Shown here: positions 43,155 to 63,659 of the stretch, piece after piece
How the letters are laid out: every line of letters begins with the position of its first letter
Numbering within the stretch: position 1 is the first letter of the stretch
Assembly: GCA_964581115.1 (NCBI GenBank)
Contig: CAZOMY010000006.1
Span: 314 to 64,313, forward strand
Source of the DNA: an uncultured Ignavibacteriaceae bacterium
GTDB taxonomy: Bacteria > Bacteroidota > Ignavibacteria > UBA10030
Length of the DNA stretch: 64,000 nucleotides
Direction: 5' to 3'
The notes under the pieces: generated by a model
Database searches by the model: none
Told to the model about the DNA's origin: nothing
What the model saw: only the letters and a program-made list of their open reading frames with translations
Made by a program: the position numbers and the translations under genes

Positions 43155-43158
43155 CGCT

Positions 43159-46422: not shown

Positions 46423-46437
46423 GCGGGGAGGACCACC

Positions 46438-47448: not shown

Positions 47449-47480
47449 CCGGTGCAGCCGGTCGCACACTACCGCAGACC

Positions 47481-49898
47481 ATGGCCTCCGATACTCCCGC
47501 ATCTTTCCCGTTCGACAACGGGCTCGGCCGTTTTGGTGATGACGGCTGGACCTACCGCATCGCAACTCCGCGCACTCCGCGTCCCTGGGTCAACGTGGTC
47601 AGCAACGGCACATTCGGGTTTGTGATCTCTCAAGCGGGCGGCGGCTACAGCTGGCGGGAGAACGCACAACTCAACCGGATCACCCGCTGGGAACAGGACC
47701 TCATCAAGGATGAGTGGGGAAAATTCCTTTACCTGCGCGATGCCGACGAGGGCCATGCCTGGTCGGCGGCATGGAAGCCGATGTGCGTCGAGCCGGAAAC
47801 CTATGCCTGTACGCACGGTGTCGGATGGTCGCGGATCGATTCGCGTACGAACGACATCGATTCGTCGTGGACGATGTTCGTTCCGGTCGATGCGCCCGTC
47901 GAGGTCTGGATCGTCCGATTGACGAACCGCTCAGCGAAGATGCGCCGATTGCAGCTCCTGACCTATTTTGAGTGGAATCTCGGAGCGGCCCCCGACTGGC
48001 ACCGCGAGTTCCACCGCTCGTTCATCGAGACCTCATACGACGAAAAGCTTGGAGCGCTGTTCGCGACCAAGCGGCTGTGGGAAGTGCCTTCGGACAAGGG
48101 ACACTGGAACCGGAATTGGGAGTACGTCGCCTTCCATGGCTGCTCGCTTCCGCCGGTGTCCTACGACGCCGACAAGGAATCCTTCCTCGGCATGTATCGC
48201 GATCTCCGCTCGCCGCGGGCAGTGGAGGAGGGGACGCTGGGGCGGAACACGGGGAACTGGCTGGATGCGATCGCCAGCCTGCAGAATGAGGTGACGCTGG
48301 AGCCCGGTGCCGATGTGACGCTCGTGTATACCGTGGGGGCAACGACCTCACGTCGAGAGGCGTCGAAGATCTTGAAAGCCTATAGCGATCCCGAGGTCGC
48401 CCAAGCGTCTCTGAAACGTGTCACGGAACGATGGCGCTCCCTGCTTGGGCGCTTCGCCGTCGAAACGCCGGACGCATCGATGAATACCATGCTCTCACCG
48501 TGGTTGCAGTACCAGGCGATCTCAGGCCGGTTGGAGGGTCGAACCGCTTACTACCAGGTGGGCGGCGCCTACGGATTTCGCGACCAGTTGCAGGACAGTC
48601 AGATCTTCCTTCCGCTCGAACCCGCGCGAACGGCCCAGCAGATACGTCTGCATGCGCGTCACCAGTACAAGGACGGGACGGTCTACCATTGGTGGCACCC
48701 GCTCTCGGAAACGGGTCTTCCCACCGACATGACCGATGATCTCTTGTGGTTGCCGTACCTCGTTGCGCAGTATCTCGACGAAACCGACGACCGATCACTG
48801 CTCAAGGCCCGGGAGCCCTTCCTCGATGAGCCACGGGGCGCCACGATCTATGATCACTCGACCAGGGCTATCGACCGCGTGCTCAAACGGATGAGCCGGC
48901 GCGGTCTTCCGCTGATCGGTGCCGGCGATTGGAACGACGGTCTGAGCGCCGTTGGACTGAAATGGAAGGGCGAATCGATCTGGCTGGGCCAGTTCCTGTA
49001 CGCCGTCCTCACCGCTTTTGCGCCGATCGCAGACCGGGCGCGTGACAGCGCGCGGGCGCGTCGTTACCGCTCGGCGGCCTCTCGGCTGAAGCGGAATCTC
49101 AACCGTCACGGCTGGGACGGCGAATACTACTATGGAGCGACCAAGGACGACGGCGAACGGCTGGGAAGCGCCCGGAACCGCCAAGGGAGGGTGTGGCTGA
49201 ACACGCAAACGTGGGCGATCCTGGCCGATGTGGCCGATCCCAAACGGGCACGGCAGGTCTTCGACATCGTCGAACAGAAGCTTGAGGGAAAGAACGGCAC
49301 GTTACTGCTGACCCCTGCGTACTCCGTGCCCGATCCGGACATAGGATACCTCACCCGTTACGCCGCCGGCATGCGGGAGAATGGGGGTGTGTACACGCAC
49401 GCCGCCACATGGTCGATCCTCGCGGCGGCACGACTGGGCCGCGCTGAAGCGGCCTATCGTCTCTTCCGGAAGATCAATCCCATCCTGCTCGGTTCGAACC
49501 CCCGGGAGTACTGCGCAGAGCCCTACGTGACCCCGGGAAATATCGAGGGACCCGATTCACGATTCTACGGAAAAGGAGGATGGACGTGGTACACCGGTTC
49601 TGCCGCCTGGCTCTTCAGAGCCGGCGTGGAAGGGATCCTCGGCGTCAAGGCGGTTCGAGGTGAACTCGCCGTCGAACCCTGCATCCCTGCTGCCTGGAAG
49701 CAGTATCGCGTTCAAAGGACCTTCCGTGGCGCCGTCTACCGCATCCTGGTGCAGAACCCTGACGGACGCTCGGAGGGGATTCAGCAGGCGTCGGTGGACG
49801 GCAAGCCGCTCACGATCACGCCGGGACAGCGCGCCGTCACCCTGCCGAGGGCGCGCCCCGGATCGACGGTGGATGTCACGATCGTCATTGGACAGTGA
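47481..49898 (+). CDS. Glycoside hydrolase family 94 glycoside phosphorylase (cellobiose/chitobiose/beta-1,2-oligoglucan phosphorylase family), cytoplasmic
   Basis: ORF 47388-49898; ATG at 47481 (MASDTPASFPF). No signal peptide. GH94 architecture with N-terminal beta-sandwich and (alpha/alpha)6 catalytic domain carrying GAGDWNDGL (catalytic Asp region) and YGFRDQLQDSQ. Specificity cannot be assigned from sequence. Confidence 0.75.
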   Translation: MASDTPASFPFDNGLGRFGDDGWTYRIATPRTPRPWVNVVSNGTFGFVISQAGGGYSWRENAQLNRITRWEQDLIKDEWGKFLYLRDADEGHAWSAAWKPMCVEPETYACTHGVGWSRIDSRTNDIDSSWTMFVPVDAPVEVWIVRLTNRSAKMRRLQLLTYFEWNLGAAPDWHREFHRSFIETSYDEKLGALFATKRLWEVPSDKGHWNRNWEYVAFHGCSLPPVSYDADKESFLGMYRDLRSPRAVEEGTLGRNTGNWLDAIASLQNEVTLEPGADVTLVYTVGATTSRREASKILKAYSDPEVAQASLKRVTERWRSLLGRFAVETPDASMNTMLSPWLQYQAISGRLEGRTAYYQVGGAYGFRDQLQDSQIFLPLEPARTAQQIRLHARHQYKDGTVYHWWHPLSETGLPTDMTDDLLWLPYLVAQYLDETDDRSLLKAREPFLDEPRGATIYDHSTRAIDRVLKRMSRRGLPLIGAGDWNDGLSAVGLKWKGESIWLGQFLYAVLTAFAPIADRARDSARARRYRSAASRLKRNLNRHGWDGEYYYGATKDDGERLGSARNRQGRVWLNTQTWAILADVADPKRARQVFDIVEQKLEGKNGTLLLTPAYSVPDPDIGYLTRYAAGMRENGGVYTHAATWSILAAARLGRAEAAYRLFRKINPILLGSNPREYCAEPYVTPGNIEGPDSRFYGKGGWTWYTGSAAWLFRAGVEGILGVKAVRGELAVEPCIPAAWKQYRVQRTFRGAVYRILVQNPDGRSEGIQQASVDGKPLTITPGQRAVTLPRARPGSTVDVTIVIGQ

Positions 49899-49906
49899 GG
49901 GGGGAC

Positions 49907-51253
49907 ATGCGTTCCGTCTGCTTTGCGCTCATCGCCCTTGTCATCGTTGAACCTTCGTCGGCACAACCGCTGGCGTCGATCTCCAGGGACGACAGCCTGT
50001 TTCTGAGGATGCTGCAACGGGAGTCGTTCAAGTTCTTCTGGCATGAGGCCGATCCGTCCACCGGTCTCATCAAGGACCGATCGGCGGACTGGTCGCCCAG
50101 CAGTATCGCCGCGGTCGGATTCGGCCTGACGTCGATCTGCATTGCCGTCGATAATGGCTGGCTTACACGCGCTGAAGCGCGGGACCGAGTGTTGACCACC
50201 GTGCGAACCTTCTGGAACGGACGGCAGGGTCCCGAACAGGAAGGAACGATCGGCTACAAGGGCTTCTTCTATCACTTCATCGACTTGAAGACAGGGAACC
50301 GCGTCTGGAACTGCGAACTGTCGACGGTCGATACAGGGCTGTTGCTCCTGGGGATGCTCGACGCGAAGGCCTACTTCAGCCTCGCTCATCCTGACGAACG
50401 GGAGATCCGTTCCCTCGTGGATTCCATCTACCGACGCATTGACTGGGCTTGGGTCTCGCAACCCGACCCGTCGATCGGCAAGGTGGATTCGACGATCGGC
50501 AACGGATGGTTTCCGGAACGGGGATTCATCCGATGGAGTTGGCAGGGCTATAACGAAGGGCTGTTCCTTTACATCCTGGCGCTCGGGAGCCCCGAGGGGG
50601 CTCTTCCGCGGCATTACTACGACGGATGGCTGAAGACCTACCGCACCGAGACGTGGTATGGGATGTCATTCTTTGCATTCCCGCCGCTGTTCGGCCATCA
50701 CTACGGCCACTGCTGGATCGACTTCCGCAACATTCGGGATGCGAAGAACCGGGAGTCAGGATGGGACTACTTCGAGAACTCCCGTCGCGCGACGCTGGCG
50801 AATCGCGCCTACTGCGCGGAGAATCCACTCGGTCATAAGGGCTACAGCGACAGTCTCTGGGGGCTGACAGCGTGCGACGGACCCGATCTGCCCCCGACGA
50901 AGGGGTATTTCGCCCGCGGAGCCCCCGATCCTGAGATCGATGATGGCACGATCGCTCCGACGGCGGCTGGAGGTTCGATACCGTTCACGCCGCATGAATC
51001 CATCGTTGCTCTAAAGCACATGTACCGGCTCCTGTGCAGCGGCCACGACCGGCGACTGTGGGGACCCTATGGCATGCGCGATGCCTTCAACCTGAGCGTG
51101 AACTGGGTCGCTGCCGACTACCTGGGTATCGATCAGGGACCGATCGTCATCATGATCGAGAATTTCTTCACGCAGAGTGTCTGGAAGCGTTTCAGCGCCA
51201 TCCGGGAAGTGCGGCGCGGACTGGAGCGGGCTGGTTATCGATCGGCGCCGTAA
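49907..51253 (+). CDS. DUF3131 / GH144-like (alpha/alpha)6 glycoside hydrolase ('glucoamylase family protein'), periplasmic
   Basis: ORF 49895-51253; ATG at 49907 is preceded by GAGGGGGG. Signal peptide MRSVCFALIALVIVEPSSAQP. 57% identical paralogue of the next gene. Size and composition fit the DUF3131 family (characterised members are endo-beta-1,2-glucanases). Family call from memory. Confidence 0.5.
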   Translation: MRSVCFALIALVIVEPSSAQPLASISRDDSLFLRMLQRESFKFFWHEADPSTGLIKDRSADWSPSSIAAVGFGLTSICIAVDNGWLTRAEARDRVLTTVRTFWNGRQGPEQEGTIGYKGFFYHFIDLKTGNRVWNCELSTVDTGLLLLGMLDAKAYFSLAHPDEREIRSLVDSIYRRIDWAWVSQPDPSIGKVDSTIGNGWFPERGFIRWSWQGYNEGLFLYILALGSPEGALPRHYYDGWLKTYRTETWYGMSFFAFPPLFGHHYGHCWIDFRNIRDAKNRESGWDYFENSRRATLANRAYCAENPLGHKGYSDSLWGLTACDGPDLPPTKGYFARGAPDPEIDDGTIAPTAAGGSIPFTPHESIVALKHMYRLLCSGHDRRLWGPYGMRDAFNLSVNWVAADYLGIDQGPIVIMIENFFTQSVWKRFSAIREVRRGLERAGYRSAP

Positions 51254-51326: not shown

Positions 51327-52970
51327 ATGATGCTTCGACAGATGGTGCCGTTGCTACGAGGCCTGGCGTTGTCGGTGGGATATGTCGTGCTGAGCTGGAT
51401 GCACGCCGATCTCTACGCGCAGCCGCTGGCCGCGATCAGCGCTGAAGACAGCACATTCTTGCGAATGGTGCAGCGTAAAGCGTTCGATTTTTTCTGGATC
51501 GAGGCTAACCCTTCGAACGGTCTTATCCGAGACCGCAGTCAGAGCGGATCGCCGAGCAGCATCGCCTCGGTCGGATTCGGCCTGTCGAGCATCTGTGTCG
51601 CCTCCGACTACGGCTGGGTGAGCCGTGCCGCCGCGGCCGACCGGGTGCGGACGACCTTACGCACGTTCTGGAATGGACCGCAAGGCTACGCGGCCCAAGG
51701 CATGATCGGGCGCCTCGGCTTCTTCTATCATTTCCTCAAGATGGACACGGCGGTGCGGGATTGGAACTGTGAGCTCTCGTCCATCGATACAGCGCTATTG
51801 CTGGCCGGCATCATCCATGCACAGCAGTACTTCGACGGGACCGATCCGGTCGAACAGGAGGTCCGCGCTCTGGCCGATTCGATATATCGGCGCGCCGACT
51901 TTGAGCGCTTCCGGAATTTCGGCACCACGCTGAACATGGGTTGGCATCCTGAGACCGGATGGCTCAACGCCTGGTGGGTCGGCTACAACGAAGCAATGAT
52001 CCTCTACATCCTCGGTCTTGGCTCGCCGACGCATCCGATCACGCCCGACCTGTGGGACAATTGGACGGGCGGCTATCATTTCGCGTCGTACTACGGCCAG
52101 ACCTACGTCGTGTTCCCGCCGCTCTTCGGACATCAATACTCTCACTGTTGGGTCGACTTCCGAGGCATCCGTGACGCCAAGATGGCCTCGTACGGGCTGG
52201 ACTATTTTGAGAACTCACGACGGGCGACCTTGGCGCAGCAGGCGTACTGTACGGCGAACCCGCTTGGACATGCCGCCTACAGCGACAGCATCTGGGGCAT
52301 TACGGCCTGCGACGGACCATCGGTCCTGGGCGGCTACAAGGCACGCGGCGCGCCGCCGGCTGAGAACGACGACGGCACGCTGGCTCCGACCGCCGCCGGG
52401 GGATCGATCGCCTTCACGCCCGAAGCGTCTCTGCGTGCGCTGAAGACGATGTACCGACAATACTGCGCGGGTCCCGAAACGCGGCTGTGGGGACCGTATG
52501 GTTTTCGCGACGCGTTCAACCCGAAACTCGATTGGTTCGACCTTGACTACATCGGCATCGACCAGGGGCCGATCGTGCTGATGATCGAGAATCTCTTCAC
52601 GCAGAAGGTCTGGTCAACCTTCATGTCGAGCCCGTACATCCAGACCGGATTGCAGCGTGCAGGATTCACCCCCGTCACGAATGCCCACGACGAGGGCGCG
52701 GTGCCGGAGAGGTTCCGGCTGGAGCAGAACTATCCGAATCCATTCAATCCTCAAACCACGGTTCGCTTCGAGCTTTCGGAAGCAGCCGACGTGCGCCTCG
52801 AGGTGTTCGACCTGTTGGGCCGCAGCATCCGAACGATGGATCTCGGCCGCCGCAACCCGGGTTCGCATCTGGAATTTCTGAACGGTGCAGACATGACCTC
52901 GGGCGTGTACCTGTATCGATTGATCGCGGGCCGTTATCAAGCGACCCGGACAATGGTACTGGCGCGATGA
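51327..52970 (+). CDS. DUF3131 / GH144-like (alpha/alpha)6 glycoside hydrolase with type-A T9SS C-terminal sorting domain (cell-surface/secreted)
   Basis: 547 aa. Signal peptide. The catalytic region is paralogous to 49907-51253 (FFWIEANPSNGLIRDRS, WNCELSSIDTALL, HCWVDFRGIRDAK, GPIVLMIEN). The C-terminal roughly 85 aa are a T9SS CTD (YPNPFNPQTTVRFEL...VFDLLGRSI...GVYLYRLIAG). Confidence 0.5.
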   Translation: MMLRQMVPLLRGLALSVGYVVLSWMHADLYAQPLAAISAEDSTFLRMVQRKAFDFFWIEANPSNGLIRDRSQSGSPSSIASVGFGLSSICVASDYGWVSRAAAADRVRTTLRTFWNGPQGYAAQGMIGRLGFFYHFLKMDTAVRDWNCELSSIDTALLLAGIIHAQQYFDGTDPVEQEVRALADSIYRRADFERFRNFGTTLNMGWHPETGWLNAWWVGYNEAMILYILGLGSPTHPITPDLWDNWTGGYHFASYYGQTYVVFPPLFGHQYSHCWVDFRGIRDAKMASYGLDYFENSRRATLAQQAYCTANPLGHAAYSDSIWGITACDGPSVLGGYKARGAPPAENDDGTLAPTAAGGSIAFTPEASLRALKTMYRQYCAGPETRLWGPYGFRDAFNPKLDWFDLDYIGIDQGPIVLMIENLFTQKVWSTFMSSPYIQTGLQRAGFTPVTNAHDEGAVPERFRLEQNYPNPFNPQTTVRFELSEAADVRLEVFDLLGRSIRTMDLGRRNPGSHLEFLNGADMTSGVYLYRLIAGRYQATRTMVLAR

Positions 52971-55606
52971 ATCCTGTCAGCGTCTCGATCGGGAGCGGCG
53001 GGCCTCGGACGACGATCGGGCTGACGGGCCGCTGGCAACTGGCCTTGTGCCACACCGAAGAGCCTCCGGCCACGTTCGACCATCAGATCGACGTTCCCTC
53101 CGTCGTAGACTGTGCGGAACCAGGCCTCCATGGCCGACAGGCTCCATACTACTGGTACGCCCGCGATCTGCAGATCGAGCCACTGCCTCCCGATACCCAG
53201 ATCTGGTTGCGCATCGAACAGGCGCAATTCGGCACGTCGGTGTGGGTTGACGACCGGTGGGCCGGATCGTCGGATGCCTGCATGACCTCTCAAGAGTACC
53301 GCATCGATCCGCTGTTTCGGAACGGTGAACACCGCTTGGCGGTTCGTGTCGGCGCGCGAACGACACTGCCTCCGGAAAGCGCCGCCGGCCGAGACCAAGA
53401 GAAGGAGGTTTACACCCCCGGCATCTGGGGCGATGTCTCGCTGATCCTGACCGGGCCTGCGCACCTCCGGGACATCCTCCTGTTGCCCGATCTGGCGGGT
53501 GCCAGTGTCACGGCAAAAGTGTGGGTGATCGATGCCGGACAGCCCGCCGATCGACTGCAGGTTCATGTCGCTGTCAACGACCCGGATGGACGTCCAGCGT
53601 CGATGACCGCGCATGCCGTCCTTGTTCGTGACGAAGATGATTGCCGCTTTTTCGAGGTCCGCATCCCGTTGACGGCTCCTCGCGCATGGTCGCCGGAGGA
53701 TCCAGCCCTGTATACCGCCCATGTCTCGGTGTCCGTCGACGGCGTGCCTGCCGACGCCGGCGCTGTTCGATTCGGCATGCGCGACTTTCGCATCGTCGGA
53801 CGCGAGTTCCATCTTAACGGCAGGCCGCGATATCTGCGCGGCGGCAATATCGCCTTTCATCGGTTCCTGTCGGACCCTGAGCGTCGAAAGCTCCCGTGGA
53901 CGATGGAGTGGGTGCGGAGGCTGCTCATTGACATTCCGCTGGAACATCACTTCAACTTCTTTCGATTTCACCTTGGCCCTGCGTATCATCGTTGGTACGA
54001 CCTTGCCGATGAGCATGGCATGCTGCTCCAGGACGAGTGGCCGTTCTGGAACGCGACAGGGTCGAATGCTGCGATCGCGCGTGAGTTCCGTCAGTGGATC
54101 AAAGACCACGGGAACCATCCGAGCATTGTCATCTGGGATCCGCTGAACGAGTCGACGGACGACAGCTTGATCCACGATGTGGTCCCGTTACTGCGGGAGC
54201 TCGACCCGACGCGTCCGTGGGAAGCGGTCGATTTTGTCGAGCAGCATCCCTACATCTACTCCCTGGGAATGACCCTGAATCACCGTCCGTTCGGCTACGC
54301 GAAGGCTCTGCCCGAACTCGAACGATCCTGCGTTCCCGTTGTCGTCAACGAGTTCCTGTGGTGGTGGTTCGATGCTTCGTGGTCTCCGACCATCTTGATG
54401 AAGGAGGTTGTCGAACGCTGGTTGGGGCGAGGAGCGGATACGGGCGCGATCATCCGTCGGCAGGCCTATCTCGCGGAGGAATTGGTCGGCCTATTTCGCA
54501 GGATGCGATGCGCGGCCATCCAGCCGTTCGTCTATCTCAGCAACAATGAGGGGCCCACGGCACATTGGTTCGAAGGCCCCATCGGGGATCTGCGTCCCAA
54601 ACCGGTGCTCGCGGCGCTCAAGAATGCGTTCGCGCCCTTCGGCCTGAGCATCGACCATCCCGACCGACATCGGGAGACCAGCGAGGCGACCAGCCTGCTC
54701 GTTCACGTCTTCAACGACACCTCACAGGTACGGCACGGCGACGTGACGGCGAGCCTGCAGGCCGCCGACGGGAGCGAAGATGCCATGGATCCAGTGCCCG
54801 TGCGGGTGCCGCCCGGCGGTCGAGCGACGGTTCATCTGTCGTTGACGATGCCGGCAACCCCGGGGACGACGACCGTACGGTGCGAATTAATGGAAGGGGT
54901 CCACGTCGTCGCCACCGCGCAGCGGGTCATCCATGTACTGGCAAGGCAGGCGCGGCGACCCGTACCCCTTCGGCCGGCGGTCATTCTCGACCCGGGGGGA
55001 GAGATCCTGGAGTTCCTCGAGCGGCAGGGGACGGACGTGAGGCCATGGGAGGGACCACCTTGGCCTGAAGAAGCTGTGTTCTTCGTCGGGAGTTTCGGCC
55101 TGGGACACCGTGCCTATCGAGATCGGATCGACGCAATCGGCAGCCGGGTGAATGATGGGGCCACGCTCGTTGTGCAGGAACCGGAATTCCGCGTCGTCGA
55201 GCCGACAGAGTTACAGGTCCTCCCAGGTCTGCACCTTCATGTGTCGCGCCGAAACGACATCGACAAAGGCGGTTATGATTCGTACGTCTTTCCGGAAGAC
55301 CCCGCTCATACTTTGTGGCGTGAGCTTCGACCGGAGCATTTTCAATGGTTCAACGGCGGGGTCGGCGGCGAGATCGTCTCTGAGTACTCGGTGGAGCCTT
55401 CGCTTCCATCGGTGCGCTTGGCCTCATGCGGACTTGGATTGCGCGTCCCAGCCGTGTTCGAGGTGCCCGTGGGACGCGGGCGGGTTGTCGTGTCGCGGAT
55501 CCAGGTTCGGGGGCGGTTGCGCCGCAGCGAACATTCGACGGACCCGTTCGCCCGGAGATACGACCCCGTCGCGGCGCAATATCTCCTCAATCTTCTTTCC
55601 TTGTGA
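52967..55606 (+). CDS. Glycoside hydrolase family 2-like (clan GH-A) enzyme, cytoplasmic
   Basis: 879 aa, no signal peptide. The start ATG overlaps the previous stop (ATGA). N-terminal sugar-binding jelly-roll (LTGRWQLAL). Acid/base motif WDPLNEST (W-x-x-x-N-E) in a TIM barrel. C-terminal beta-sandwich domains. Confidence 0.55.
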   Translation: MNPVSVSIGSGGPRTTIGLTGRWQLALCHTEEPPATFDHQIDVPSVVDCAEPGLHGRQAPYYWYARDLQIEPLPPDTQIWLRIEQAQFGTSVWVDDRWAGSSDACMTSQEYRIDPLFRNGEHRLAVRVGARTTLPPESAAGRDQEKEVYTPGIWGDVSLILTGPAHLRDILLLPDLAGASVTAKVWVIDAGQPADRLQVHVAVNDPDGRPASMTAHAVLVRDEDDCRFFEVRIPLTAPRAWSPEDPALYTAHVSVSVDGVPADAGAVRFGMRDFRIVGREFHLNGRPRYLRGGNIAFHRFLSDPERRKLPWTMEWVRRLLIDIPLEHHFNFFRFHLGPAYHRWYDLADEHGMLLQDEWPFWNATGSNAAIAREFRQWIKDHGNHPSIVIWDPLNESTDDSLIHDVVPLLRELDPTRPWEAVDFVEQHPYIYSLGMTLNHRPFGYAKALPELERSCVPVVVNEFLWWWFDASWSPTILMKEVVERWLGRGADTGAIIRRQAYLAEELVGLFRRMRCAAIQPFVYLSNNEGPTAHWFEGPIGDLRPKPVLAALKNAFAPFGLSIDHPDRHRETSEATSLLVHVFNDTSQVRHGDVTASLQAADGSEDAMDPVPVRVPPGGRATVHLSLTMPATPGTTTVRCELMEGVHVVATAQRVIHVLARQARRPVPLRPAVILDPGGEILEFLERQGTDVRPWEGPPWPEEAVFFVGSFGLGHRAYRDRIDAIGSRVNDGATLVVQEPEFRVVEPTELQVLPGLHLHVSRRNDIDKGGYDSYVFPEDPAHTLWRELRPEHFQWFNGGVGGEIVSEYSVEPSLPSVRLASCGLGLRVPAVFEVPVGRGRVVVSRIQVRGRLRRSEHSTDPFARRYDPVAAQYLLNLLSL

Positions 55607-56886
55607 ACGTGCGCCTGGCTCAACTGACCGTTGTCGCCGCTTTCTTGGGCCTTTCCTGCGTTTCGGAGGAAGGCGGGCCCGTCGTTGTGCGCTTCTGGGG
55701 GATGGGGAACGAGGGCGAAATGGTGCGAAAACTCATTCCGGAGTTCGAGCGGAGGCATCCGCAGATCCGCGTGGTGGTTCAGCAGATACCGTGGACCGCA
55801 GCCCATGAGAAGCTGTTGACCGCGTTCGCCGGCGAGTCGACGCCGGATGTCTGCCAACTGGGGAACACCTGGATCCCGGAGTTCGGTGTTCTGAACGCCC
55901 TGGAACCCCTCGACCAATGGGTCGCCGCATCGTCCGTCGTTCAACCCCACGACTACTTTGAAGGCGTCGTTCAGATGAATGTCCTCGACTCGACGCTGCT
56001 CGGCATTCCGTGGTACGTCGACACGCGCGTTCTCTACTATCGCCGGGACCTTCTGGCCGAAGCCGGGGCCGATTCGGCGCCGGCGACGTGGGACGGGATG
56101 CTTCGATTGTGCGACCGCATGAAGCGGCGGGCTGAGAAGGCTGGGCGCACCCACTTTCCCTTTTTCCTTCCGACCAATGAGTGGGTGCCGGCCATCATCC
56201 TCGGCACGCAGGCGGGCGGCTCGTTCCTGGCGGACGGCTCGACAAGAGGCAATTTCGGCGGTCCGGAATTCAGGCGCGCCTTTGAGTTGCTGGAGACGTT
56301 CTATCGCCGCGGCTATTCGCCTCCCGGGCAATCGCTCATCACCAACATGTACCACGCCTTCGACGACGGGTTGATCGCGATGTACATCACCGGTCCGTGG
56401 AATATCGGCGAGTTCACCCGCCGGATCCCGGCGGACCGGCAGCACATTTGGATGACTGCTCCGCTGCCCTCCATGGACGACCGAACTCCGGGGGCCTCCT
56501 TGCCGCTCGGCACGAGCCTGGTGATGTTCCGCGGATCGAAGCACAAAGATGAAGCTTGGAAGCTGATCGAGTTCCTCGCCTCGACCGAACAATCCATCGA
56601 GTTCTATCGCATCACGGGCAATCTCCCTCCTCGGCGCTCTGCCTGGTCAGATACCTCACTCGCGAATAACCGCTACGTGCAGGCCTTTTACCGGCAGCTA
56701 CAGCGCGTCGACCCGTTGCCGCCGGTTCCGGAATGGGAACAGATCGTCATCCGCCTTCAATCCTACGTGGAGTTCGTTGCCACCGGTGCGATGACCGTCG
56801 ATGCGGCCGTACCCTCCTTTGACCATGACGTCGACCGGATGCTCGAAAAGCGACGGTGGCTGGCGTCGCAGGAGGGAAGGCCGTGA
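55603..56886 (+). CDS. ABC transporter extracellular solute-binding protein (family 1, sugar/oligosaccharide)
   Basis: ORF 55426-56886. GTG at 55603 overlaps the GH2 stop (GTGA) and gives a signal/lipoprotein-like N-terminus VNVRLAQLTVVAAFLGLSC. SBP_bac_1 features (VVRFWGMG, WTAAHEKL, IPWYVDTRVLYYRRDL). Confidence 0.8.
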   Translation: MNVRLAQLTVVAAFLGLSCVSEEGGPVVVRFWGMGNEGEMVRKLIPEFERRHPQIRVVVQQIPWTAAHEKLLTAFAGESTPDVCQLGNTWIPEFGVLNALEPLDQWVAASSVVQPHDYFEGVVQMNVLDSTLLGIPWYVDTRVLYYRRDLLAEAGADSAPATWDGMLRLCDRMKRRAEKAGRTHFPFFLPTNEWVPAIILGTQAGGSFLADGSTRGNFGGPEFRRAFELLETFYRRGYSPPGQSLITNMYHAFDDGLIAMYITGPWNIGEFTRRIPADRQHIWMTAPLPSMDDRTPGASLPLGTSLVMFRGSKHKDEAWKLIEFLASTEQSIEFYRITGNLPPRRSAWSDTSLANNRYVQAFYRQLQRVDPLPPVPEWEQIVIRLQSYVEFVATGAMTVDAAVPSFDHDVDRMLEKRRWLASQEGRP

Positions 56887-57782
56887 GCTTGCGACTTCAG
56901 GACCGGCGGAAGCAGGCGATCGCCGCCTGGCTGTTTCTGGCCCCGGCGCTTGCCGTCCTGGCCGCGTTCTTTGTCCTTCCCGTGGCGGCCGCGTTTGTCA
57001 TGAGTTTCACCGACTTCGACATCTACGGACTGGGTGACCTGTCGACGGTGCGATTCATCGGCATTGACAATTACGTGCGCATCCTCGACACACCCCTGTT
57101 CTGGACGGCACTTTCGAATACCTTCTACTTCGTCGTCGTCGGCGCTCCGCTTTCGGTCGGCGTCTCTCTGGCGGTTGCGCTCATGGTGAATGCCAGAATG
57201 GCGCGGTTCAAAGGTGTCTTCCGTACGATCTACTTCCTGCCGGTGGTCACCAGCCTGGTGGCCGTCGCGATCGTATGGCGGTACCTCTACCATCCGGCTC
57301 ATGGGCTTCTCAATCATGCTCTGGGCTGGCTTGGCATCGGTCCGGTGGATTGGCTCGGCGATCCGGCGGTGGCCATGCCGGCGATCATTGTGCTGGCGGT
57401 CTGGAAGAACTTCGGCTACAACATGTTGATCTTCGTCGCCGGCCTGTCCAGCATTCCGGAGGATCTCTACGAAGCGGCCCACATCGACGGCGCTTCGGGC
57501 TGGAGACAGTTCATTGACATCACCCTGCCCATGCTGACGCCGACCACGGTCTTCGTGGTCATGATCACGCTCATCGGCTACTTTCAGCTGTTCGCGGAGC
57601 CGTACGTCATGACACAAGGGGGGCCGCTGAACGCAACCCTGAGTGTCGTCCTCATGATGTACGAGCAGGGATTCCGCTGGTGGAACATGGGATACGCGGC
57701 TGCGATCGCCTTCGTCCTGTTCGCCATCATCCTCTTCTTCACGGTCGTTCAGATGTTCGTCCAGCGGAAGGTCGAATCGTGA
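56883..57782 (+). CDS. ABC transporter permease (MalF/UgpA-like, sugar)
   Basis: ORF 56856-57782. GTG at 56883 overlaps the SBP stop. 6 TM helices. The EAA-loop region is EAAHIDGASGWRQFIDITLP. Confidence 0.85.
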   Translation: MSLRLQDRRKQAIAAWLFLAPALAVLAAFFVLPVAAAFVMSFTDFDIYGLGDLSTVRFIGIDNYVRILDTPLFWTALSNTFYFVVVGAPLSVGVSLAVALMVNARMARFKGVFRTIYFLPVVTSLVAVAIVWRYLYHPAHGLLNHALGWLGIGPVDWLGDPAVAMPAIIVLAVWKNFGYNMLIFVAGLSSIPEDLYEAAHIDGASGWRQFIDITLPMLTPTTVFVVMITLIGYFQLFAEPYVMTQGGPLNATLSVVLMMYEQGFRWWNMGYAAAIAFVLFAIILFFTVVQMFVQRKVES

Positions 57783-58600
57783 GCCGGCCCGCTCATCGCG
57801 CACTTCTGCACACTGCACTGATGCTGGTTGCGCTTCTGACCATGACGCCGACGGTCTGGATGGTGGCGGCGTCATTCATGCAGTCCGGAGAGGCAAGCGG
57901 AACGCCGCCGCCGTTCCTGCCGGCGCGTCCGACCTTGGAGCACTATGCAGCGCTCACCGAGCGGATGCAGATGCCGACATACTTCTTCAACAGCTTGCTG
58001 ATCGCGTCGGTCGTGACGTTGGTCTCGCTCGTCGTCAATTCGATGGCCGGATTCGCCTTTGCCAAATACCGCTTTGAAGGTCGGGACCGGCTGTTCAGGG
58101 CTCTCTTGAGCGGGATGGTGGTGCCGGCGCAGGTGACGATGCTCCCGCTGTTCCTGATGATGAAGAAACTCGGTCTGGTGAATACCTACCTCGGTGCCAT
58201 GATCCCGGGGCTTGCCAGCATCTTCGGTATCTTCCTTCTCCGGCAGTTCGTCCGGTCGGTGCCCGACAGCCTGCTGGAGGCTGCCCGTATGGACGGCGCC
58301 GGCGAGTTCAGGATCTACCGCACGATCATCCTTCCGCTCTGCAAGCCCATCCTCCTGACGCTCGCCCTGTTCACCTTCATGGGCATGTGGAACGACTTTA
58401 TGTGGCCCCTCATCATCATGACCGATGACGCTCGATACACCCTGCCCGTGGCGCTGGCCAACCTCATGGGCGAACACGTCTTGGACTTGGAGCTGATGAT
58501 GGCCGGCTCGGTCATCACGGTCCTGCCTGTGGTCATCTTGTTTCTTGCCTTCCAACGCCACTACGTTCGCGGGATCATGCTCGGCGGCGTCAAGGAATGA
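57779..58600 (+). CDS. ABC transporter permease (MalG/UgpE-like, sugar)
   Basis: ORF 57680-58600. GTG at 57779 overlaps the previous stop. 6 TM helices. EAA motif LEAARMDGAGEFRIYRTIILP. No ATPase gene follows. Confidence 0.85.
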   Translation: MSRPAHRALLHTALMLVALLTMTPTVWMVAASFMQSGEASGTPPPFLPARPTLEHYAALTERMQMPTYFFNSLLIASVVTLVSLVVNSMAGFAFAKYRFEGRDRLFRALLSGMVVPAQVTMLPLFLMMKKLGLVNTYLGAMIPGLASIFGIFLLRQFVRSVPDSLLEAARMDGAGEFRIYRTIILPLCKPILLTLALFTFMGMWNDFMWPLIIMTDDARYTLPVALANLMGEHVLDLELMMAGSVITVLPVVILFLAFQRHYVRGIMLGGVKE

Positions 58601-58656
58601 GGCTCTGTCCGGAGGATCCCTGTTTGCTTGATCCGATCACCCAACCTGAGTCCGCT

Positions 58657-61600
58657 ATGAGAAGCATAAGCCTGTTTCTTGCAGTGTTCCTCGCAGCTTC
58701 AAGCGTCCCCGCGCGTGCGCAGTTGATCTATGCAGGTCTGGAGGCAGACGGCGATACCACCGTGTGGCGTGCCTTCCGATCTACAGGGGTGACGAGCGAA
58801 CGGTGCTCCGACGAGGGGCGCGAAGGTCCCGGCTTGCGGATTGATGTGAAGTTCCCTAAGGGCTCCGGCTATGGAGGGGTCTTCCGTACAGTCGAAATCC
58901 CGGTCGTGACCGACTTTCAGATCGTCTTCTGGCTCCGCGCAACGGTGCCGGTGAACAACTTTGAGATCAAGGTCAGCGACGATACCCTTGGCGAGAACAT
59001 CTGGTGGGTGAACCATCGGATGTACGCATATCCTGCAGGATGGAAAAAGCTCGTCGTCAAACGTCGCCACCTCAGCTTCGCCTGGGGACCGCGTCCGGCC
59101 GCGGCGCCGACGGTCCTGCGTCGCCTGGAGTTTGTGGTCACCGCGGGCTCGGGGGGCGAAGGAAGCATCTGGATCGACGACATTTCGATCGAAGAGGTAC
59201 CGCCGATACCCGACCCACTCCCACGGCCGAAAGCCTCGGCATCGAGCGGCGCGCCATCGGCCCGGGCGGCCCTGATTGGGATCGCTGGATCGTGGGACCC
59301 CGGCACGAAGGACAGTGCGTGGTGGCAGGTCGACTGGGGGTACCGGAGGGAGTTCGGCGGCGTCGAACTCGAGTGGGAGGCGGGGCAGACGCCGATCTCG
59401 TACGACCTTTTGACCTCAAATGACGGACGAGCGTTCGAGTCCGTTCGACGGGTCGAACGTGGTGGCGGAGGACGTCGCCTGGTGTTCACGCCCGAGTCCG
59501 AAGGTCGATTCCTTCGCGTGCATGTGCGAAACAACACGGGGGCCCGCCTTCCGAAACTGGCCTCTGTGGATGTCGTATCCTCAGAATCATTGTCGACCCG
59601 GAACGACTACGTCAGCCGACTGGCGCGTCAGCATCGGCGGGGTCTCTTCCCGCGGGGCTTCTTGAAGGAGATGTCATACTGGACCGTCGTCGGCGTTGCA
59701 GACGGACGGCAAGAAGGATTGATCGATGAGGACGGCGCATTCGAAGTGGATAAGCAAGCCTTCTCCCTCGAGCCGTTCGTCTCCCTCGAGCCGACGAAGC
59801 GCTTGATCACCTGGGCTGACGGAGCGTCCGACCAGTCGCTCGAGTCGGGTCGCTTGCCGATCCCGACCGTCAAGCGCAGGGCATCGGACATCGACCTCGA
59901 GATCACGCTTCTTGCTACGGGAACTCCCGAAGCAGCATCGCTGGCGGCTCGATACACGCTGAGGAACCGATCAGCATTGCCGATGCGAGGGACGCTCTGG
60001 CTGGCCGTTCGTCCGTACCAGGTCAACCCTCCTTCGCAATGGCTCAACTTCGACGGAGGAGCGACCTCGATCCGTTCCATCAGGTTCGACGGCACCTCGG
60101 CCGACGTTGACGGGCGTCTCGTACGAGTCTCGGGCATTCCCACGTTCGGAGCCTCGTCGATCGATGAGGATGAAGTGACGGTGCAATTGGCCGCGGGTGT
60201 GGGGCCACGACGGGCGTCCGTTGACGATCCGACCGGATTTGCGTCGGGTGCTTTTGGATGGCCGTTCGCTCTCGCGCCCGATGAATCGTTGGTCTGCGTT
60301 GCGGCCGTTCCATGGACCGATCGCAGTCCCTGGGCGGACCGCCCTCCCACTGTCGAGGAATTTGCCGCCGCGCTCGAACGTGAGCGCAGCCACTGGCGCG
60401 CTCGGACGGAATGGATCCGCTGGACGGTGCCTCCTTCGGCGAGGCGCGTGTTCGACGTGGTGCAAGCGACGCTTGGCTATATTCTCGTCAACAAGGATGG
60501 ATTCGGAATCCAGCCCGGGTCACGGTCATACGAGCGCTCGTGGATGCGCGATGGCACCATGACGTCCGACGCTCTCCTCAAGTTCGGCTTGACCGAGCCA
60601 TCGAAGGCGTTCATCGCCTGGATCGCGCCGTTTCAGTATGAGTCGGGCATGGTCCCATGTGTTGTCGACTCGCGCGGCCCCGACCCGGTGCCGGAACATG
60701 ACAGCAACGGGCAGCTGATCTTCGGGATCATGGAGGTCTTCCGATTCACACGCGACACCGTCTTCCTGCGACAGCACTTCCACCATATCGTCCGGGCGGT
60801 GGACTTCATTCAATCGCTCCGTGCCCTTCGGATGACGCCGGTGTTTCGCGATGGCAACTCGGAACAACGAGCCTTCTACGGCCTTGTGACAGAATCGATC
60901 AGCCACGAGGGATACTCGGCAAAGCCGATGCACTCCTACTGGGACAATTTCTTTACGCTGCGGGGACTCAAAGATGCTGCCGAAGCGGCGAAGGTTCTGG
61001 GTGATGATGTACGGACGGTGACCTTCGACAGCCTGTCGCAGGCGTTTCGCGTTGACCTGTACCGATCGATTGAACAGGCGATGAAAAACCGGGGGATCGA
61101 CTTCATTCCAGGGTGCGTCGAGCTTGGCGACTTTGATCCAACATCGACTTCGATCGCACTCTATCCGGGAGGCGAGTTTCGAGCGGTGCCTCAAGAGCCG
61201 TTGCGCAGGACCTTCGACCGGTACTTCGACTGGTTCATGCAGCGAGCCCGGGGTGAGATCAGCTGGGATGCCTACACGCCCTACGAAGTGCGCAACATCG
61301 GCACCTATGTGTATCTCGGGCAGAAGGACCGGGCCCACACGCTGCTCGATTGGTTCCTGCGCGATCAGCGTCCGTCCGGCTGGAATCACTGGGCCGAGGT
61401 GGTGACGCCGCATGCGCGAACGCCCCGGTTCATCGGCGACATGCCGCATACATGGGTCGGCTCCGACTTCTTGAACGCGGTGCGGGCCATGTTCGTGTAC
61501 GAACGCGATGACGATGGCGCCATCATCGTCGGCGCGGGCTTGCGCGATGCATGGGTGGAGGAAGGCATTGGCGTCCAGAACCTTCCCACCCATGCCGGCC

Positions 61601-61812
61601 CCATAACGCTCGACGTTCGTACGCCCGCAGAGCGCATCGTGGTCGCCCGTTTGGACGGCCAGATCGACCCGGCCAAGCATCCGATCCTCCTGTCGACCGG
61701 ACTCCTCACCGCAACGCTCCGCGGTGCTTCGGTGAATCGGGTCAAGGCGATTCCGGTCGATGGCTACCTGCGCATCGACCGACTTCCGGCCACCGTCGAA
61801 TTGGCATACTGA
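58657..61812 (+). CDS. Large secreted glycoside-hydrolase-like protein: N-terminal discoidin/CBM-like beta-sandwich domains plus C-terminal (alpha/alpha)6-barrel with GH15-like W-x-R-D motif
   Basis: ORF 58597-61812; ATG at 58657 gives the signal peptide MRSISLFLAVFLAASSVPARAQ. Two jelly-roll-like regions (IWIDDISIEE, FLRVHVRNN). The C-terminal roughly 550 aa carry ERSWMRDGTMTSDALLKFG (compare GH15 Y-x-W-x-RD), the helix-rich HFHHIVRAVDFIQSL and PHTWVGSDFLNAV. Confidence 0.45.
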   Translation: MRSISLFLAVFLAASSVPARAQLIYAGLEADGDTTVWRAFRSTGVTSERCSDEGREGPGLRIDVKFPKGSGYGGVFRTVEIPVVTDFQIVFWLRATVPVNNFEIKVSDDTLGENIWWVNHRMYAYPAGWKKLVVKRRHLSFAWGPRPAAAPTVLRRLEFVVTAGSGGEGSIWIDDISIEEVPPIPDPLPRPKASASSGAPSARAALIGIAGSWDPGTKDSAWWQVDWGYRREFGGVELEWEAGQTPISYDLLTSNDGRAFESVRRVERGGGGRRLVFTPESEGRFLRVHVRNNTGARLPKLASVDVVSSESLSTRNDYVSRLARQHRRGLFPRGFLKEMSYWTVVGVADGRQEGLIDEDGAFEVDKQAFSLEPFVSLEPTKRLITWADGASDQSLESGRLPIPTVKRRASDIDLEITLLATGTPEAASLAARYTLRNRSALPMRGTLWLAVRPYQVNPPSQWLNFDGGATSIRSIRFDGTSADVDGRLVRVSGIPTFGASSIDEDEVTVQLAAGVGPRRASVDDPTGFASGAFGWPFALAPDESLVCVAAVPWTDRSPWADRPPTVEEFAAALERERSHWRARTEWIRWTVPPSARRVFDVVQATLGYILVNKDGFGIQPGSRSYERSWMRDGTMTSDALLKFGLTEPSKAFIAWIAPFQYESGMVPCVVDSRGPDPVPEHDSNGQLIFGIMEVFRFTRDTVFLRQHFHHIVRAVDFIQSLRALRMTPVFRDGNSEQRAFYGLVTESISHEGYSAKPMHSYWDNFFTLRGLKDAAEAAKVLGDDVRTVTFDSLSQAFRVDLYRSIEQAMKNRGIDFIPGCVELGDFDPTSTSIALYPGGEFRAVPQEPLRRTFDRYFDWFMQRARGEISWDAYTPYEVRNIGTYVYLGQKDRAHTLLDWFLRDQRPSGWNHWAEVVTPHARTPRFIGDMPHTWVGSDFLNAVRAMFVYERDDDGAIIVGAGLRDAWVEEGIGVQNLPTHAGPITLDVRTPAERIVVARLDGQIDPAKHPILLSTGLLTATLRGASVNRVKAIPVDGYLRIDRLPATVELAY

Positions 61813-61814
61813 TC

Positions 61815-63659
61815 GTGCGAACGACCGGACCATGGTTGTTTCTTGCCCTCGTGGCGACGACCCTGCCAGTCGACGCACAAGAGGGTCGGATGGACACGTT
61901 GGCGATGATCGATGACCAGCCGGTGACCTCCCGCGACCTGTTCGAACGACTCCAACTGATGCCGTTCGAGGGCCGGATCGGAAACGTCGACATCGAAACG
62001 GCCAAGAAGCGGGCGGTGGCCTCGATCGTTGCCGAGCGCTTGTTGGCATCGACGATCGATGACGCTCCAGCGACCGAACGATGGCGTATGGGGTCCATGC
62101 GTTCAGTGCTGGAACGATTGTTCGTGCGGGATGCGCTGTTCCTGGATGAGGTGCGAGCAAAAGCCCGGGTGACGGAGGCCGACGTGAGCGCCGCACTGGC
62201 TCGGTACGGGGTGAAGCGCCGAATTGCCGTCGCTCGCTTGACCGATACCTCGTCCGCCTCGTCTCTTCGACTTCGATGGGAACAGGCGCGTGATCGAGGG
62301 GACGCCGGTCCGTCGCTGGTCCGCCTTCTACCGTCCCCACCGGATACGGTGGCGATCACGTTCGGGGCGATCGATCAGCCGCTCGAGGATGCTGCCTTTG
62401 CGCTTCGTCGTCCCCTGGACCTCTCCGTGCCGGTGGTTTCATCGCTCTTCGGTCCCGTTGCCGTGGCCTACGTTGACGAGCACGCCGATGCCGCCGCTCA
62501 ACGACTGTCCATGTCCGACCGGCGTGCAGCGGTCCGAAAGGTTCTCCAGGAGCGACGGGAGACCGAGCGTGTGCGTATCTTCACCGACAGCCTTCTGCGC
62601 GGTCACACGATGACGCTGGACTCGGTACTCGCCACGTCGATCGCTGTACGGATGCGCCAGATGATGCTCGAGGACACCCTTGCCCGCAGCGTGCCCGGAG
62701 GGTGGCGTCCCATGCCCGAGGATGTCTATCGGCTCATGCGAGAGCGATCAGAAGCCCTGACCCGGTCGTTCGTTCGCGGGTCGTTCGGCGAGGTGCCGCT
62801 GGGTGTCTTTCTCGAGTCGCTCCTGCACTACGATTTCGTCATTCCTTCCCTCCGACCGGCGTCGTTTGCAGTGTCATTTGCTCACATCGTGCGGACAGTC
62901 GTCGAGGCGGAGGTGGTGGCGTTGGAGGCATATCGGCGAGGACTTCAACATCGGGCCGAAGTGCGGCGTGACATCGCCCTTTGGATGGCGCATTGGCGGG
63001 CACGCTGGGCGGAGTATGCGATCGCTGAAACGGTAAGCATTCGCAAGGCCGATGCGGTGTTTTCGCTCTGGCGCTATCACACCTCACTTGCCGAGAATTC
63101 CTGCGTCCTGGACGTGCGCGAGATCCTTCGTCCGGATTCCATCAGCTCTGAGCGCATTGCGCAAGAGCTCCGTAGAGGTGCTCCCTTCGACTCGCTGGCC
63201 CGGCAATGGTCGACGCACGTAGCGTGGCGCTCGAACGGAGGTCGTTCAGGCCGCTTTCGATTCCGTGAGCACCCGGACGTGGCGTCTCGGGTCATGGATC
63301 TCGAGATCGGCGAGTGGAAGGGCCCCGTCCGAACGAGCGGGGGATTCTCGTTGATCCAACTTCTGGAGCGCTCTTGGGACAGCAGCCGGGAGACCGTTGA
63401 TTCACTGCTGGAGCGTGAAGCGCGGCGCGTACGGTTGGCCCGTCAACAGGCCGCTGTCGACGCTGCCGTAGCCGACCTGGCATCTCAACGAAGGGTGTGG
63501 ATCGATGAGGACCGCATCAAAGGTGTGGAGATCCAGCCGGTCAACATGATCACCCGGCGGATCATTGGGTTCGGAGGGCGGATCAATGCGGCCCCTGTTC
63601 TCTCTCCAAACTGGGGGTGGGTCGATCGTTGGAAGCAGGGGCGGGTTGCCGTTCCCTGA
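61815..63659 (+). CDS. Secreted PpiC/parvulin-type peptidyl-prolyl isomerase domain protein (SurA-like chaperone?)
   Basis: ORF 61551-63659. GTG at 61815 directly follows the previous stop and gives a signal peptide (VRTTGPWLFLALVATTLPVDAQ). The C-terminal region SNGGRSGRFRFREHPDVASRVMDLEIGEWKGPVRTSGGFSLIQLLE resembles the parvulin fold. The rest is Ala/Arg-rich helical. Confidence 0.45.
   Translation: MRTTGPWLFLALVATTLPVDAQEGRMDTLAMIDDQPVTSRDLFERLQLMPFEGRIGNVDIETAKKRAVASIVAERLLASTIDDAPATERWRMGSMRSVLERLFVRDALFLDEVRAKARVTEADVSAALARYGVKRRIAVARLTDTSSASSLRLRWEQARDRGDAGPSLVRLLPSPPDTVAITFGAIDQPLEDAAFALRRPLDLSVPVVSSLFGPVAVAYVDEHADAAAQRLSMSDRRAAVRKVLQERRETERVRIFTDSLLRGHTMTLDSVLATSIAVRMRQMMLEDTLARSVPGGWRPMPEDVYRLMRERSEALTRSFVRGSFGEVPLGVFLESLLHYDFVIPSLRPASFAVSFAHIVRTVVEAEVVALEAYRRGLQHRAEVRRDIALWMAHWRARWAEYAIAETVSIRKADAVFSLWRYHTSLAENSCVLDVREILRPDSISSERIAQELRRGAPFDSLARQWSTHVAWRSNGGRSGRFRFREHPDVASRVMDLEIGEWKGPVRTSGGFSLIQLLERSWDSSRETVDSLLEREARRVRLARQQAAVDAAVADLASQRRVWIDEDRIKGVEIQPVNMITRRIIGFGGRINAAPVLSPNWGWVDRWKQGRVAVP

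Follow-up and report, generated by a model that had tools for sequence, protein, structure and literature searches.

A 64,000-nucleotide stretch of DNA from an uncultured Ignavibacteriaceae bacterium (contig CAZOMY010000006.1), hereafter called the window, contains a β-1,2-glucan utilization locus like that described for Ignavibacterium album (PMC8861115). The gene located in this locus directly downstream of two ATP-binding cassette (ABC) permease genes, referred to below as the target gene (Table 1), probably encodes an exported and most likely periplasmic glycoside hydrolase (GH) which belongs to a large undescribed family and acts in the utilization of β-1,2-glucans. Because its barrel domain fits no described family and because it adjoins β-1,2-glucan genes, the protein is a candidate for a missing enzyme of this pathway. 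A more specific proposal, which we hold tentatively and regard as a little short of evenly balanced, is that it represents a new GH family, namely a hydrolytic periplasmic relative of GH94 and GH15 enzymes that carries out a novel step of β-1,2-glucan breakdown and is a core component of this system in many phyla. The word glucanase, as applied to this protein, is taken from its genomic context.

The structure of the protein was predicted with AlphaFold2 from an alignment of 70 family sequences, leading to a high-confidence model (predicted local distance difference test, pLDDT, 90.7; predicted template modeling score, pTM, 0.88). Together with the many homologs of the protein, which are mostly full length, this model shows that the open reading frame (ORF) is not a chance one. 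The predicted order of domains is a signal peptide, a β-sandwich similar to carbohydrate-binding modules (CBM) of families 4, 9 and 11, a CBM32 module, a β-supersandwich, an (α/α)6 barrel and a C-terminal β-sandwich. The original prediction, made from the sequence of the window, had proposed an (α/α)6 C-terminal half preceded by two F5/8 type C-like modules. The barrel, which is the presumed catalytic domain, is recovered both in the model and in the structures retrieved by Foldseek. As for the two modules, the second is indeed of the F5/8 type C kind, with a PF00754 match at aa 194-297 (E 3.2e-10; 40.7 bits for a gathering score of 28.2) and CBM32 structures matched by the family profile at E 3e-11; a single-sequence phmmer search of the PDB also returned CBM32 domains only, at E ~0.1. 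The first module, in contrast, is CBM4/9/11-like: the family profile matches the CBM11 structure 1v0a at aa ~24–177 (E 7.5e-5), and CBM_4_9 was found in 10 of the 46 family members scanned against Pfam. This first β-sandwich is more conserved than the CBM32 module, with W37, E103, K105, W117 and W143 each found in 97% or more of the 257 members compared (31–100% identical to the target, with a median of 40%), the set on which all conservation values given below are based. The high pTM suggests that it packs against the core, so that it could contribute to substrate binding. Two further domains, the β-supersandwich, which is of the kind preceding the barrel in GH15, GH65 and GH94, and the C-terminal β-sandwich, were absent from the original prediction. 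Supersandwich, barrel and C-terminal β-sandwich, the last three of the five predicted domains, make up a core that is also that of GH15, GH65 and GH94 enzymes.

The C-terminal ~740 residues of the protein have no match above threshold in Pfam, NCBIfam or the sequences of the PDB, in line with the earlier proposal of a new family. Pfam gives F5/8 type C only, with no confident match to a characterized non-glucanase family. When the 70-sequence family profile was searched against the PDB, the best match for this region was a GH15-related one at E 2.4, and the best NCBIfam match of the target was the GH15-type model TIGR01577, with 16.6 bits for a cut-off of 820.7 (E 0.0023). Within the window, BLASTP and tblastn searches with the target retrieved none of the other genes at E < 0.3 (E 2.9 in BLASTP for its own GH94 protein), in agreement with the earlier statement that it does not match the GH94, GH144 and GH3 genes of the locus. 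Literature searches found no description of this protein type in the library covered. Judged by Pfam, NCBIfam and the PDB, which cover those CAZy families that are modeled in Pfam or have a member of solved structure, the target thus appears to belong to a new family.

At the level of the fold, relatives are readily found. The top Foldseek matches in the PDB are all carbohydrate-active enzymes combining a supersandwich and an (α/α)6 barrel, with 9–14% identity to the target: the GH15 dextran dextrinase 9ju0 (5.6e-18, the best match), GH94 phosphorylases (~1e-14), GH78 enzymes (5.6e-12), the GH15 glucodextranase 1ug9 (3.8e-12) and the bacterial glucoamylase 1lf6 (1.1e-10), along with GH116, GH95, GH65 and amylo-α-1,6-glucosidase. 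The target thus belongs to the broad six-hairpin, supersandwich-bearing superfamily and, by sequence, to none of those of its families compared here.

The best of these matches raises the question of whether the protein could be a GH15-type α-glucoside hydrolase or transglucosidase, similar to glucoamylase, glucodextranase, trehalase or dextran dextrinase. Such an enzyme might, for instance, open α-1,6-cyclized β-1,2-glucans at their one α-1,6 bond or cleave an α-linked decoration, and α-1,6-cyclized β-1,2-glucans occur in nature (PMC11228985, 10.1101/2025.04.21.649730). The predicted supersandwich and barrel of the target correspond to those of the bacterial GH15 enzymes. Its invariant W629-x-R631-D632 sequence resembles the GH15 W-x-R-D motif, and it is on this region that the faint match to TIGR01577 is centered, as are the PF00723 (Glyco_hydro_15) matches detected in 23 of the 46 scanned members (best E 0.002). 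The GH15 resemblance noted in the original prediction is therefore real; it is however faint, and no stronger than the resemblance to GH78 by sequence or to GH94 by profile and fold, two families which are as close or closer by sequence profile. The target itself has no PF00723 match at E ≤ 1, scores in the family remain far under threshold (Pfam E ≥ 0.002) and identity to GH15 structures is 10–12%. Comparison by hhalign of the family with the single sequence of the Aspergillus niger glucoamylase, a fungal GH15 enzyme whose sequence was checked against PDB 3eqa (5e-299), found nothing (probability 0.2%). The context of the target is one of β-glucan rather than α-glucan, and no α-glucan-active family recurs in the 80 related loci described below, where the recurrent gene clusters that were annotated include no GH13, GH31 or GH97. 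A GH15-type activity is thus considered unlikely.

By sequence, the strongest echo of the family's barrel comes from the α-L-rhamnosidases of GH78. No catalytic-domain model is matched more often or more strongly in the family than PF17389 (Bac_rhamnosid6H), which was detected in 41 of the 46 scanned members with a best E of 1.5e-8, and GH78 enzymes are among the Foldseek matches; PF06202 (GDE_C) was also found, in 10 of the 46. A GH78-like rhamnosidase, or another glycosidase removing a non-glucose decoration and present in these loci for that reason, would be in line with these matches, a few of which pass the gathering score (34.7 bits for 24.5 in P0066). However, the matches span profile positions ~44-210 of 339, half of the Pfam model, and the target has no PF17389 match at E ≤ 1. 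The accessory domains PF05592, PF08531 and PF17390 are absent from the target and from all 46 scanned members, and rhamnose-related genes do not recur in the 80 neighborhoods. In our own motif comparison, the catalytic glutamate of the GH78 R-E-R motif, which precedes the first inner helix, would correspond to E626, a residue that is variable in the family. This makes a rhamnosidase-type function very improbable.

The relationship to GH94, which comprises cellobiose and chitobiose phosphorylases, the phosphorylase domain of cyclic β-1,2-glucan synthase and enzymes of the 1,2-β-oligoglucan phosphorylase (SOGP) type, would be remote and visible solely at the profile and fold level. An hhalign comparison of the family with an alignment of GH94 proteins encoded by neighboring genes gave a probability of 77% (E 2e-5), and with a relaxed setting the two proved collinear, with 271 columns at posterior ≥ 0.5 between aa 409 and 988. 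Both share the same three-domain core, the motifs R-D, Q-Y-x-x-G-x-V and T-W-x-G-S, and their occurrence in β-1,2-glucan loci. GH94 phosphorylases carry their catalytic aspartate in a D-W-N-D motif and a phosphate-binding histidine in a GGVYxHA motif. Neither motif is conserved in the target, which in addition has no PF17167 or PF06165 match. GH94 enzymes are also cytoplasmic and devoid of the two N-terminal CBM-type modules, whereas the target has both and is predicted to be exported.

The endo-β-1,2-glucanases of GH144, GH162 and GH192–194, which form clan GH-S (PMC12102758), share with the target the (α/α)6 fold class, the presumed substrate and the loci, GH144 being often adjacent to the target family and sometimes fused to it. 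Nevertheless, no relationship is detectable by sequence: the target has no PF10091 match, hhalign of the family against a 51-sequence GH144 alignment gave a probability of 0.3%, and the family profile matched no GH144, GH162, GH189 or GH192–194 structure of the PDB at E ≤ 10. In the GH192–194 paper, which treats GH144-related barrels only, clan GH-S enzymes are described as barrels, and its abstract makes no mention of a supersandwich (PMC12102758), in contrast to the architecture of the target.

The link to β-1,2-glucans comes from the conservation of the gene neighborhood. The family is large. Among 8,000 candidates scored, it numbers at least 1,484 clusters (90% identity) with E ≤ 1e-3; in a 50% identity library, at least 1,786 representatives match at E ≤ 1e-30; and relatives of the target occur in at least 595 species-level genomes. 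The listed homologs share 39–78% identity with it and are mostly full length; in all cases their source name is "discoidin domain-containing" or "hypothetical". The nearest named relative, with 73% identity, is from a "Bacteroidetes bacterium" metagenome-assembled genome (MAG; L007), and an Ignavibacterium album homolog is among the related loci (L054). Neighborhoods were counted in the 80 closest of the at least 595 genome loci, which belong to Ignavibacteria, Bacteroidota, Calditrichia, Phycisphaerae and other Planctomycetota, Acidobacteriota, Gemmatimonadota, Didemnitutus, Competibacter-type Gammaproteobacteria and Kryptoniota. Co-occurrence was assessed in two independent ways, by tblastn and by ORF clustering, and the counts agree. 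Within 10 kb of the target homolog, a GH144 gene is present in 59 of the 80 loci and a GH94 or SOGP-type phosphorylase gene in 37; when the locus spans at least 20 kb, one or the other is found within this distance in 41 of 43. The gene immediately upstream is a same-strand GH144 gene in 34 loci and an ABC permease gene in 11, and the one immediately downstream encodes an MFS_2 sugar transporter in 19. Other recurrent partners are GH35 and GH2-like proteins (20 loci each), GH3 (19 loci) and GH1 (6 loci), as well as SusC and SusD. GH35 is the family of the β-1,2-glucosyltransferase IALB_1185, and transglycosylating enzymes are known in β-1,2-glucan loci (PMC8861115). The tie to a glucan locus put forward in the original prediction is thus much stronger than one window could indicate: across no fewer than nine named bacterial groups, the family is kept next to genes of GH144 and GH94/SOGP, and P0101 (1516 aa) is a direct fusion of GH144 to a target-type protein, the identical 1516-aa sequence occurring on many contigs.

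Esterases form a second group of associated proteins. SGNH esterase domains are fused to the target family in P0067 and P0133, and a DLH domain in P0227, while among the 80 loci a DLH-type esterase is encoded in nine and a sulfatase/phosphodiesterase-like protein in four. These fusions and neighbors hint at acylated or phosphoglycerol-substituted β-1,2-glucans as the natural substrates. The fused or adjacent genes of the esterase and phosphatase or phosphodiesterase type in related loci (L002, 3239-6921; L004, 20930-21997; L005, 13941-15428 and 20386-21243) comprise SGNH/GDSL and DLH/α-β-hydrolase esterases as well as sulfatase-like, PhoD and Exo_endo_phos proteins.

The active sites of six-hairpin glycosidases are built in the loops between the barrel helices. 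In the target family, 18 residues are strictly invariant among the 257 members (R623, Y625, W629, R631, D632, D682, H750, E751, Y753, W762, D763, D825, Y876, E877, R879, D928, H931 and W933), and all of them sit in long inter-helix loops of the barrel model. Seven are carboxylates (D632, D682, E751, D763, D825, E877 and D928), and E680, D827 and E914 are near-invariant. The ERSWMRDG sequence pointed out in the original prediction is indeed present, at aa 626–633 (nt 60532–60555), within the first of three loop motifs (Table 1). In this motif, R631-D632 aligns in hhalign with the R-D of the GH94 sequence FRDQLQD, at low posterior. The second motif, aa 747-766, is a candidate general-acid loop in which the model has low pLDDT at aa 749-755; W762 is followed by D763 and not by Glu as in GH15, a comparison that is one of motif resemblance. 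In the third, E877 is a candidate general base, with E914 as the alternative. Two other glutamates were discarded as catalytic residues because of their incomplete conservation: E626, the GH78-like position, which is conserved in 74% of the members and otherwise replaced by Ala or Asp, and E746, which is conserved in 86%.

This pattern also bears on whether the protein is an enzyme at all. A non-catalytic glycan-binding or scaffold protein, which would capture periplasmic β-1,2-glucan fragments or pass them to GH144 and the importer, would be in line with the presence of two CBM-type modules, the first of which is very strongly conserved, with the high pTM, which suggests that they are packed rigidly on the core, and with the fact that the catalytic motifs of GH15, GH78 and GH94 are none of them fully preserved. 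The invariant residues, with their seven carboxylates on barrel loops, are however distributed as in an active site rather than as on the surface of a lectin. Moreover, the same operon already encodes a dedicated ABC binding protein, and the fusions with GH144 and with esterases point to polypeptides that combine several enzymes. We thus find a pseudo-enzyme quite improbable.

Considering the protein as a glycoside hydrolase, a mechanism can be proposed. The target would hydrolyze a glucosidic bond by single displacement, with inversion. The sugar in subsite -1 would be held by R631 and D632, similarly to the R-D pair of GH15 and GH94, D763 (following W762, reminiscent of the GH15 W-E) or E751 would serve as general acid, and E877 or E914 would serve as general base, at the position where phosphate is bound in the related GH94 phosphorylases. 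The bond cleaved could be that releasing glucose or sophorose from the end of β-1,2 chains, or a bond at substituted or branched residues beyond the reach of GH144. The novel step may accordingly consist of inverting exo-hydrolysis of sophoro-oligosaccharides, or of the processing of acylated, phosphoglycerol-substituted or branched cyclic or osmoregulated glucans that are refractory to GH144. In the pathway, a surface or secreted GH144 endo-β-1,2-glucanase would cut the polymer and a TonB-dependent receptor would bring the fragments into the periplasm, where the periplasmic GH144 and the target protein would process them further; the ABC importer, or the MFS_2 transporter in other genomes, would then take up sophoro-oligosaccharides, and the cytoplasmic GH94 phosphorylase would complete their breakdown.

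The collinearity with GH94 at the profile and fold level could also indicate a glycoside phosphorylase or a transglycosylase, for instance a periplasmic analog of 1,2-β-oligoglucan phosphorylase or an enzyme disproportionating chain lengths. Phosphorylases are normally cytoplasmic, where phosphate and the metabolism of sugar phosphates are found, and the target carries a signal peptide; its loci, in addition, already encode cytoplasmic GH94/SOGP enzymes. The GH94 segment GGVYTHAA, which presumably carries the phosphate-binding histidine, lies opposite AYTPYEVR in the target, a sequence without His (hhalign, low to moderate confidence), and there E877, next to Y876, suggests a water-activating base (moderate posterior). 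On the side of transglycosylation, the top fold match, dextran dextrinase, is a transglycosylase, and the GH35 enzyme IALB_1185 provides a precedent in β-1,2-glucan loci (PMC8861115). Because of the invariant carboxylate E877 opposite GGVYTHAA and of export to the periplasm, our analysis favors a hydrolase, and a phosphorylase or transglycosylase seems improbable. Each of these four alternatives is less well supported than a periplasmic glycoside hydrolase acting in β-1,2-glucan utilization.

Several observations nevertheless weigh against the latter. No glycosidase model of Pfam or NCBIfam is matched above threshold by the target protein, and, as mentioned, the A. niger glucoamylase sequence was not matched either. 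The hhalign probability with GH94 is only 77% and the loops align at low posterior, so that the proposed residue roles would be guesses; the catalytic DWND of GH94 lies opposite a non-acidic stretch of the target (posterior ~0.1), with no clear counterpart. The neighborhood counts come from the 80 closest loci, and more distant members of the family may be found in other contexts. The recurrent esterase fusions suggest that the true substrate could be a glucan bearing decorations, or another portion of such a glucan. Finally, the Listeria system and the described GH144, GH3 and GH94 enzymes work without such a protein (PMC8861115, PMC12102758); known β-1,2-glucan degraders thus manage without it, and its step is therefore either accessory or unassigned.

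Export was examined together with the start of the gene. The frame is open without interruption over 58597..61812 on the forward strand, which gives 1071 aa when counted from the first ATG, at 58597. This codon overlaps the stop codon of the upstream permease (ATGA, 58597-58600) and is the start used in the NCBI-derived protein, whereas the second in-frame ATG, at 58657, gives 1051 aa (MRSISLF...). Full-length homologs are typically 1045–1055 aa long, with their signal peptides starting at the equivalent position, the IMG call for an identical protein (P0270) is 1051 aa, and the signal peptide would be buried behind the 20 additional residues encoded from 58597, which are acidic. For these reasons, the start at 58657 is likely the correct one and that at 58597, which was also considered, is held less likely. 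The original prediction had combined the coordinate 58657 with a length of 1071 aa; the former is retained as the preferred start and the length from there is 1051 aa. Its proposal of a secreted protein is supported by the leader identified by inspection (Table 1) and by equivalent hydrophobic N-terminal leaders, usually ending in ..AQ or ..SQ, in almost every one of the 70 family sequences that were aligned. In the model, the protein begins with a helix followed by a segment of low pLDDT at aa 18-23. The placement of the gene directly after the ABC permeases, 57 nt apart in the original prediction, is likewise correct: 56 nt separate the end of the permease ORF at 58600 from the target start on the same strand, and a terminator and promoter scan gave nothing above chance, with no such terminator-like site in this gap.

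Table 1. Target gene, its domains and motifs, and the surrounding genes of the window (positions are those of the window; + denotes the forward strand)
Feature	Positions	Strand	Residues (aa)	Basis or remarks
Target gene	58657..61812	+	1051 in total	ORF list; stop codon 61810-61812
Signal peptide	58657..58719	+	1-21	By inspection; MRSISLFLAVFLAASSVPARA, cleaved before Q; type I; no lipobox cysteine
β-Sandwich 1, CBM4/9/11-like	58729..59196	+	25-180	Model, family profile, conservation
β-Sandwich 2, F5/8 type C (CBM32, discoidin)	59224..59577	+	190-307	PF00754, CBM32 structures
β-Supersandwich	59674..60312	+	~340-552	DSSP on model, Foldseek; region covered by hhalign with GH94
Helical linker and (α/α)6 barrel	60352..61494	+	566-946	Twelve long helices in model; Foldseek
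Loop motif R623-S-Y-E-R-S-W-M-R-D-G633	60523..60555	+	623-633	R623, Y625, W629, R631, D632 invariant; E626 74%
Loop motif SISHEGYSAKPMHSYWDNFF	60895..60954	+	747-766	H750, E751, Y753, W762, D763 invariant; before barrel helix aa 761-780
Motif TPYEVR	61276..61293	+	874-879	Y876, E877, R879 invariant; aligns with GH94 GGVYTHAA, posterior ~0.5
C-terminal β-sandwich	61495..61809	+	947-1051	Model; collinear with GH94 C-terminal domain
GH3	34865	+		With signal peptide
LacI regulator	37308	+
CBM9 protein	38423	+		With type IX secretion system (T9SS) tail
TonB-dependent receptor	40491-43151	+
Secreted protein, function unassigned	43156-46419	+	~1088 in total	No Pfam match
PorV/FadL-like protein	46438-47445	+
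GH94 phosphorylase	47388-49898	+		Pfam
GH144	49895-51253	+		Pfam, N-terminus; with signal peptide
GH144	51327-52970	+		Pfam, N-terminus; with signal peptide and T9SS tail
GH2-like protein	52967-55603	+		Weak GH2 domain scores; no signal peptide
Solute-binding protein	55426-56886 (ORF)	+		Pfam; true start probably later
Two ABC permeases	56856-57782, 57680-58600	+		Pfam; directly upstream of target
PPIC-type peptidyl-prolyl isomerase (SurA-like)	61893-63656	+		~80 nt downstream of target

The other genes of the window (Table 1) are those of a β-1,2-glucan locus. In the PDB, the GH94 protein matches best the C-terminal phosphorylase domain of cyclic β-1,2-glucan synthase (8rf9, E 1.6e-163), and the solute-binding protein matches the sophoro-oligosaccharide-binding protein Lin1841 (5ysb, E 2e-63). 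The match of the same GH94 protein to 5h3z, which we take to be an SOGP-type protein, is far weaker (2e-6) than that to 8rf9. In related loci, the phosphorylases are either of the short type found in the window or of the long SOGP type, 15 of the 37 having at least 1089 aa.

The TonB-dependent receptor, the secreted protein of ~1088 aa and the PorV/FadL-like protein (40491-47445) recur as a trio in 14 of the 80 related loci and may constitute the outer-membrane uptake module of those β-1,2-glucan loci that are not of the Sus type. The best PDB relatives of the GH2-like protein are a β-D-galactofuranosidase and β-galactosidases (E ~1e-17 to 5e-18); with its presence in a quarter of the loci (20/80), it is a second uncharacterized conserved member of β-1,2-glucan loci. 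In one related MAG (L006, 887-3796), a DUF559 (endonuclease-like) domain is embedded in a GH2-like ORF, where it occupies aa 237-343 and is flanked by GH2 domains; this could be an insertion or an artefact of assembly or ORF calling. Homologs of the peptidyl-prolyl isomerase are encoded in nine of the 80 related loci, two of which have the gene immediately after the target homolog, and its linkage to the target may be more than local synteny.

β-1,2-Glucans are factors of symbiosis, virulence and osmoprotection. Enzymes degrading them have been known only since 2014, and each discovery defined a new CAZy family: GH144, GH162, GH186, GH189 and GH192–194 (PMC12102758, PMC10514313, PMC10834661). 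The family described here, large and annotated only as "discoidin domain-containing", is the most consistent uncharacterized neighbor of GH144 that was found in this analysis, and it is a probable new GH family whose fold class and pathway are both known. The question of its activity is directly testable, as β-1,2-glucan and sophoro-oligosaccharide substrates can now be produced enzymatically. Assigning this activity would fill a gap in the pathway and probably found a new GH family, and it would improve the annotation of many environmental genomes of Ignavibacteria, Bacteroidota, Planctomycetota and Gemmatimonadota.

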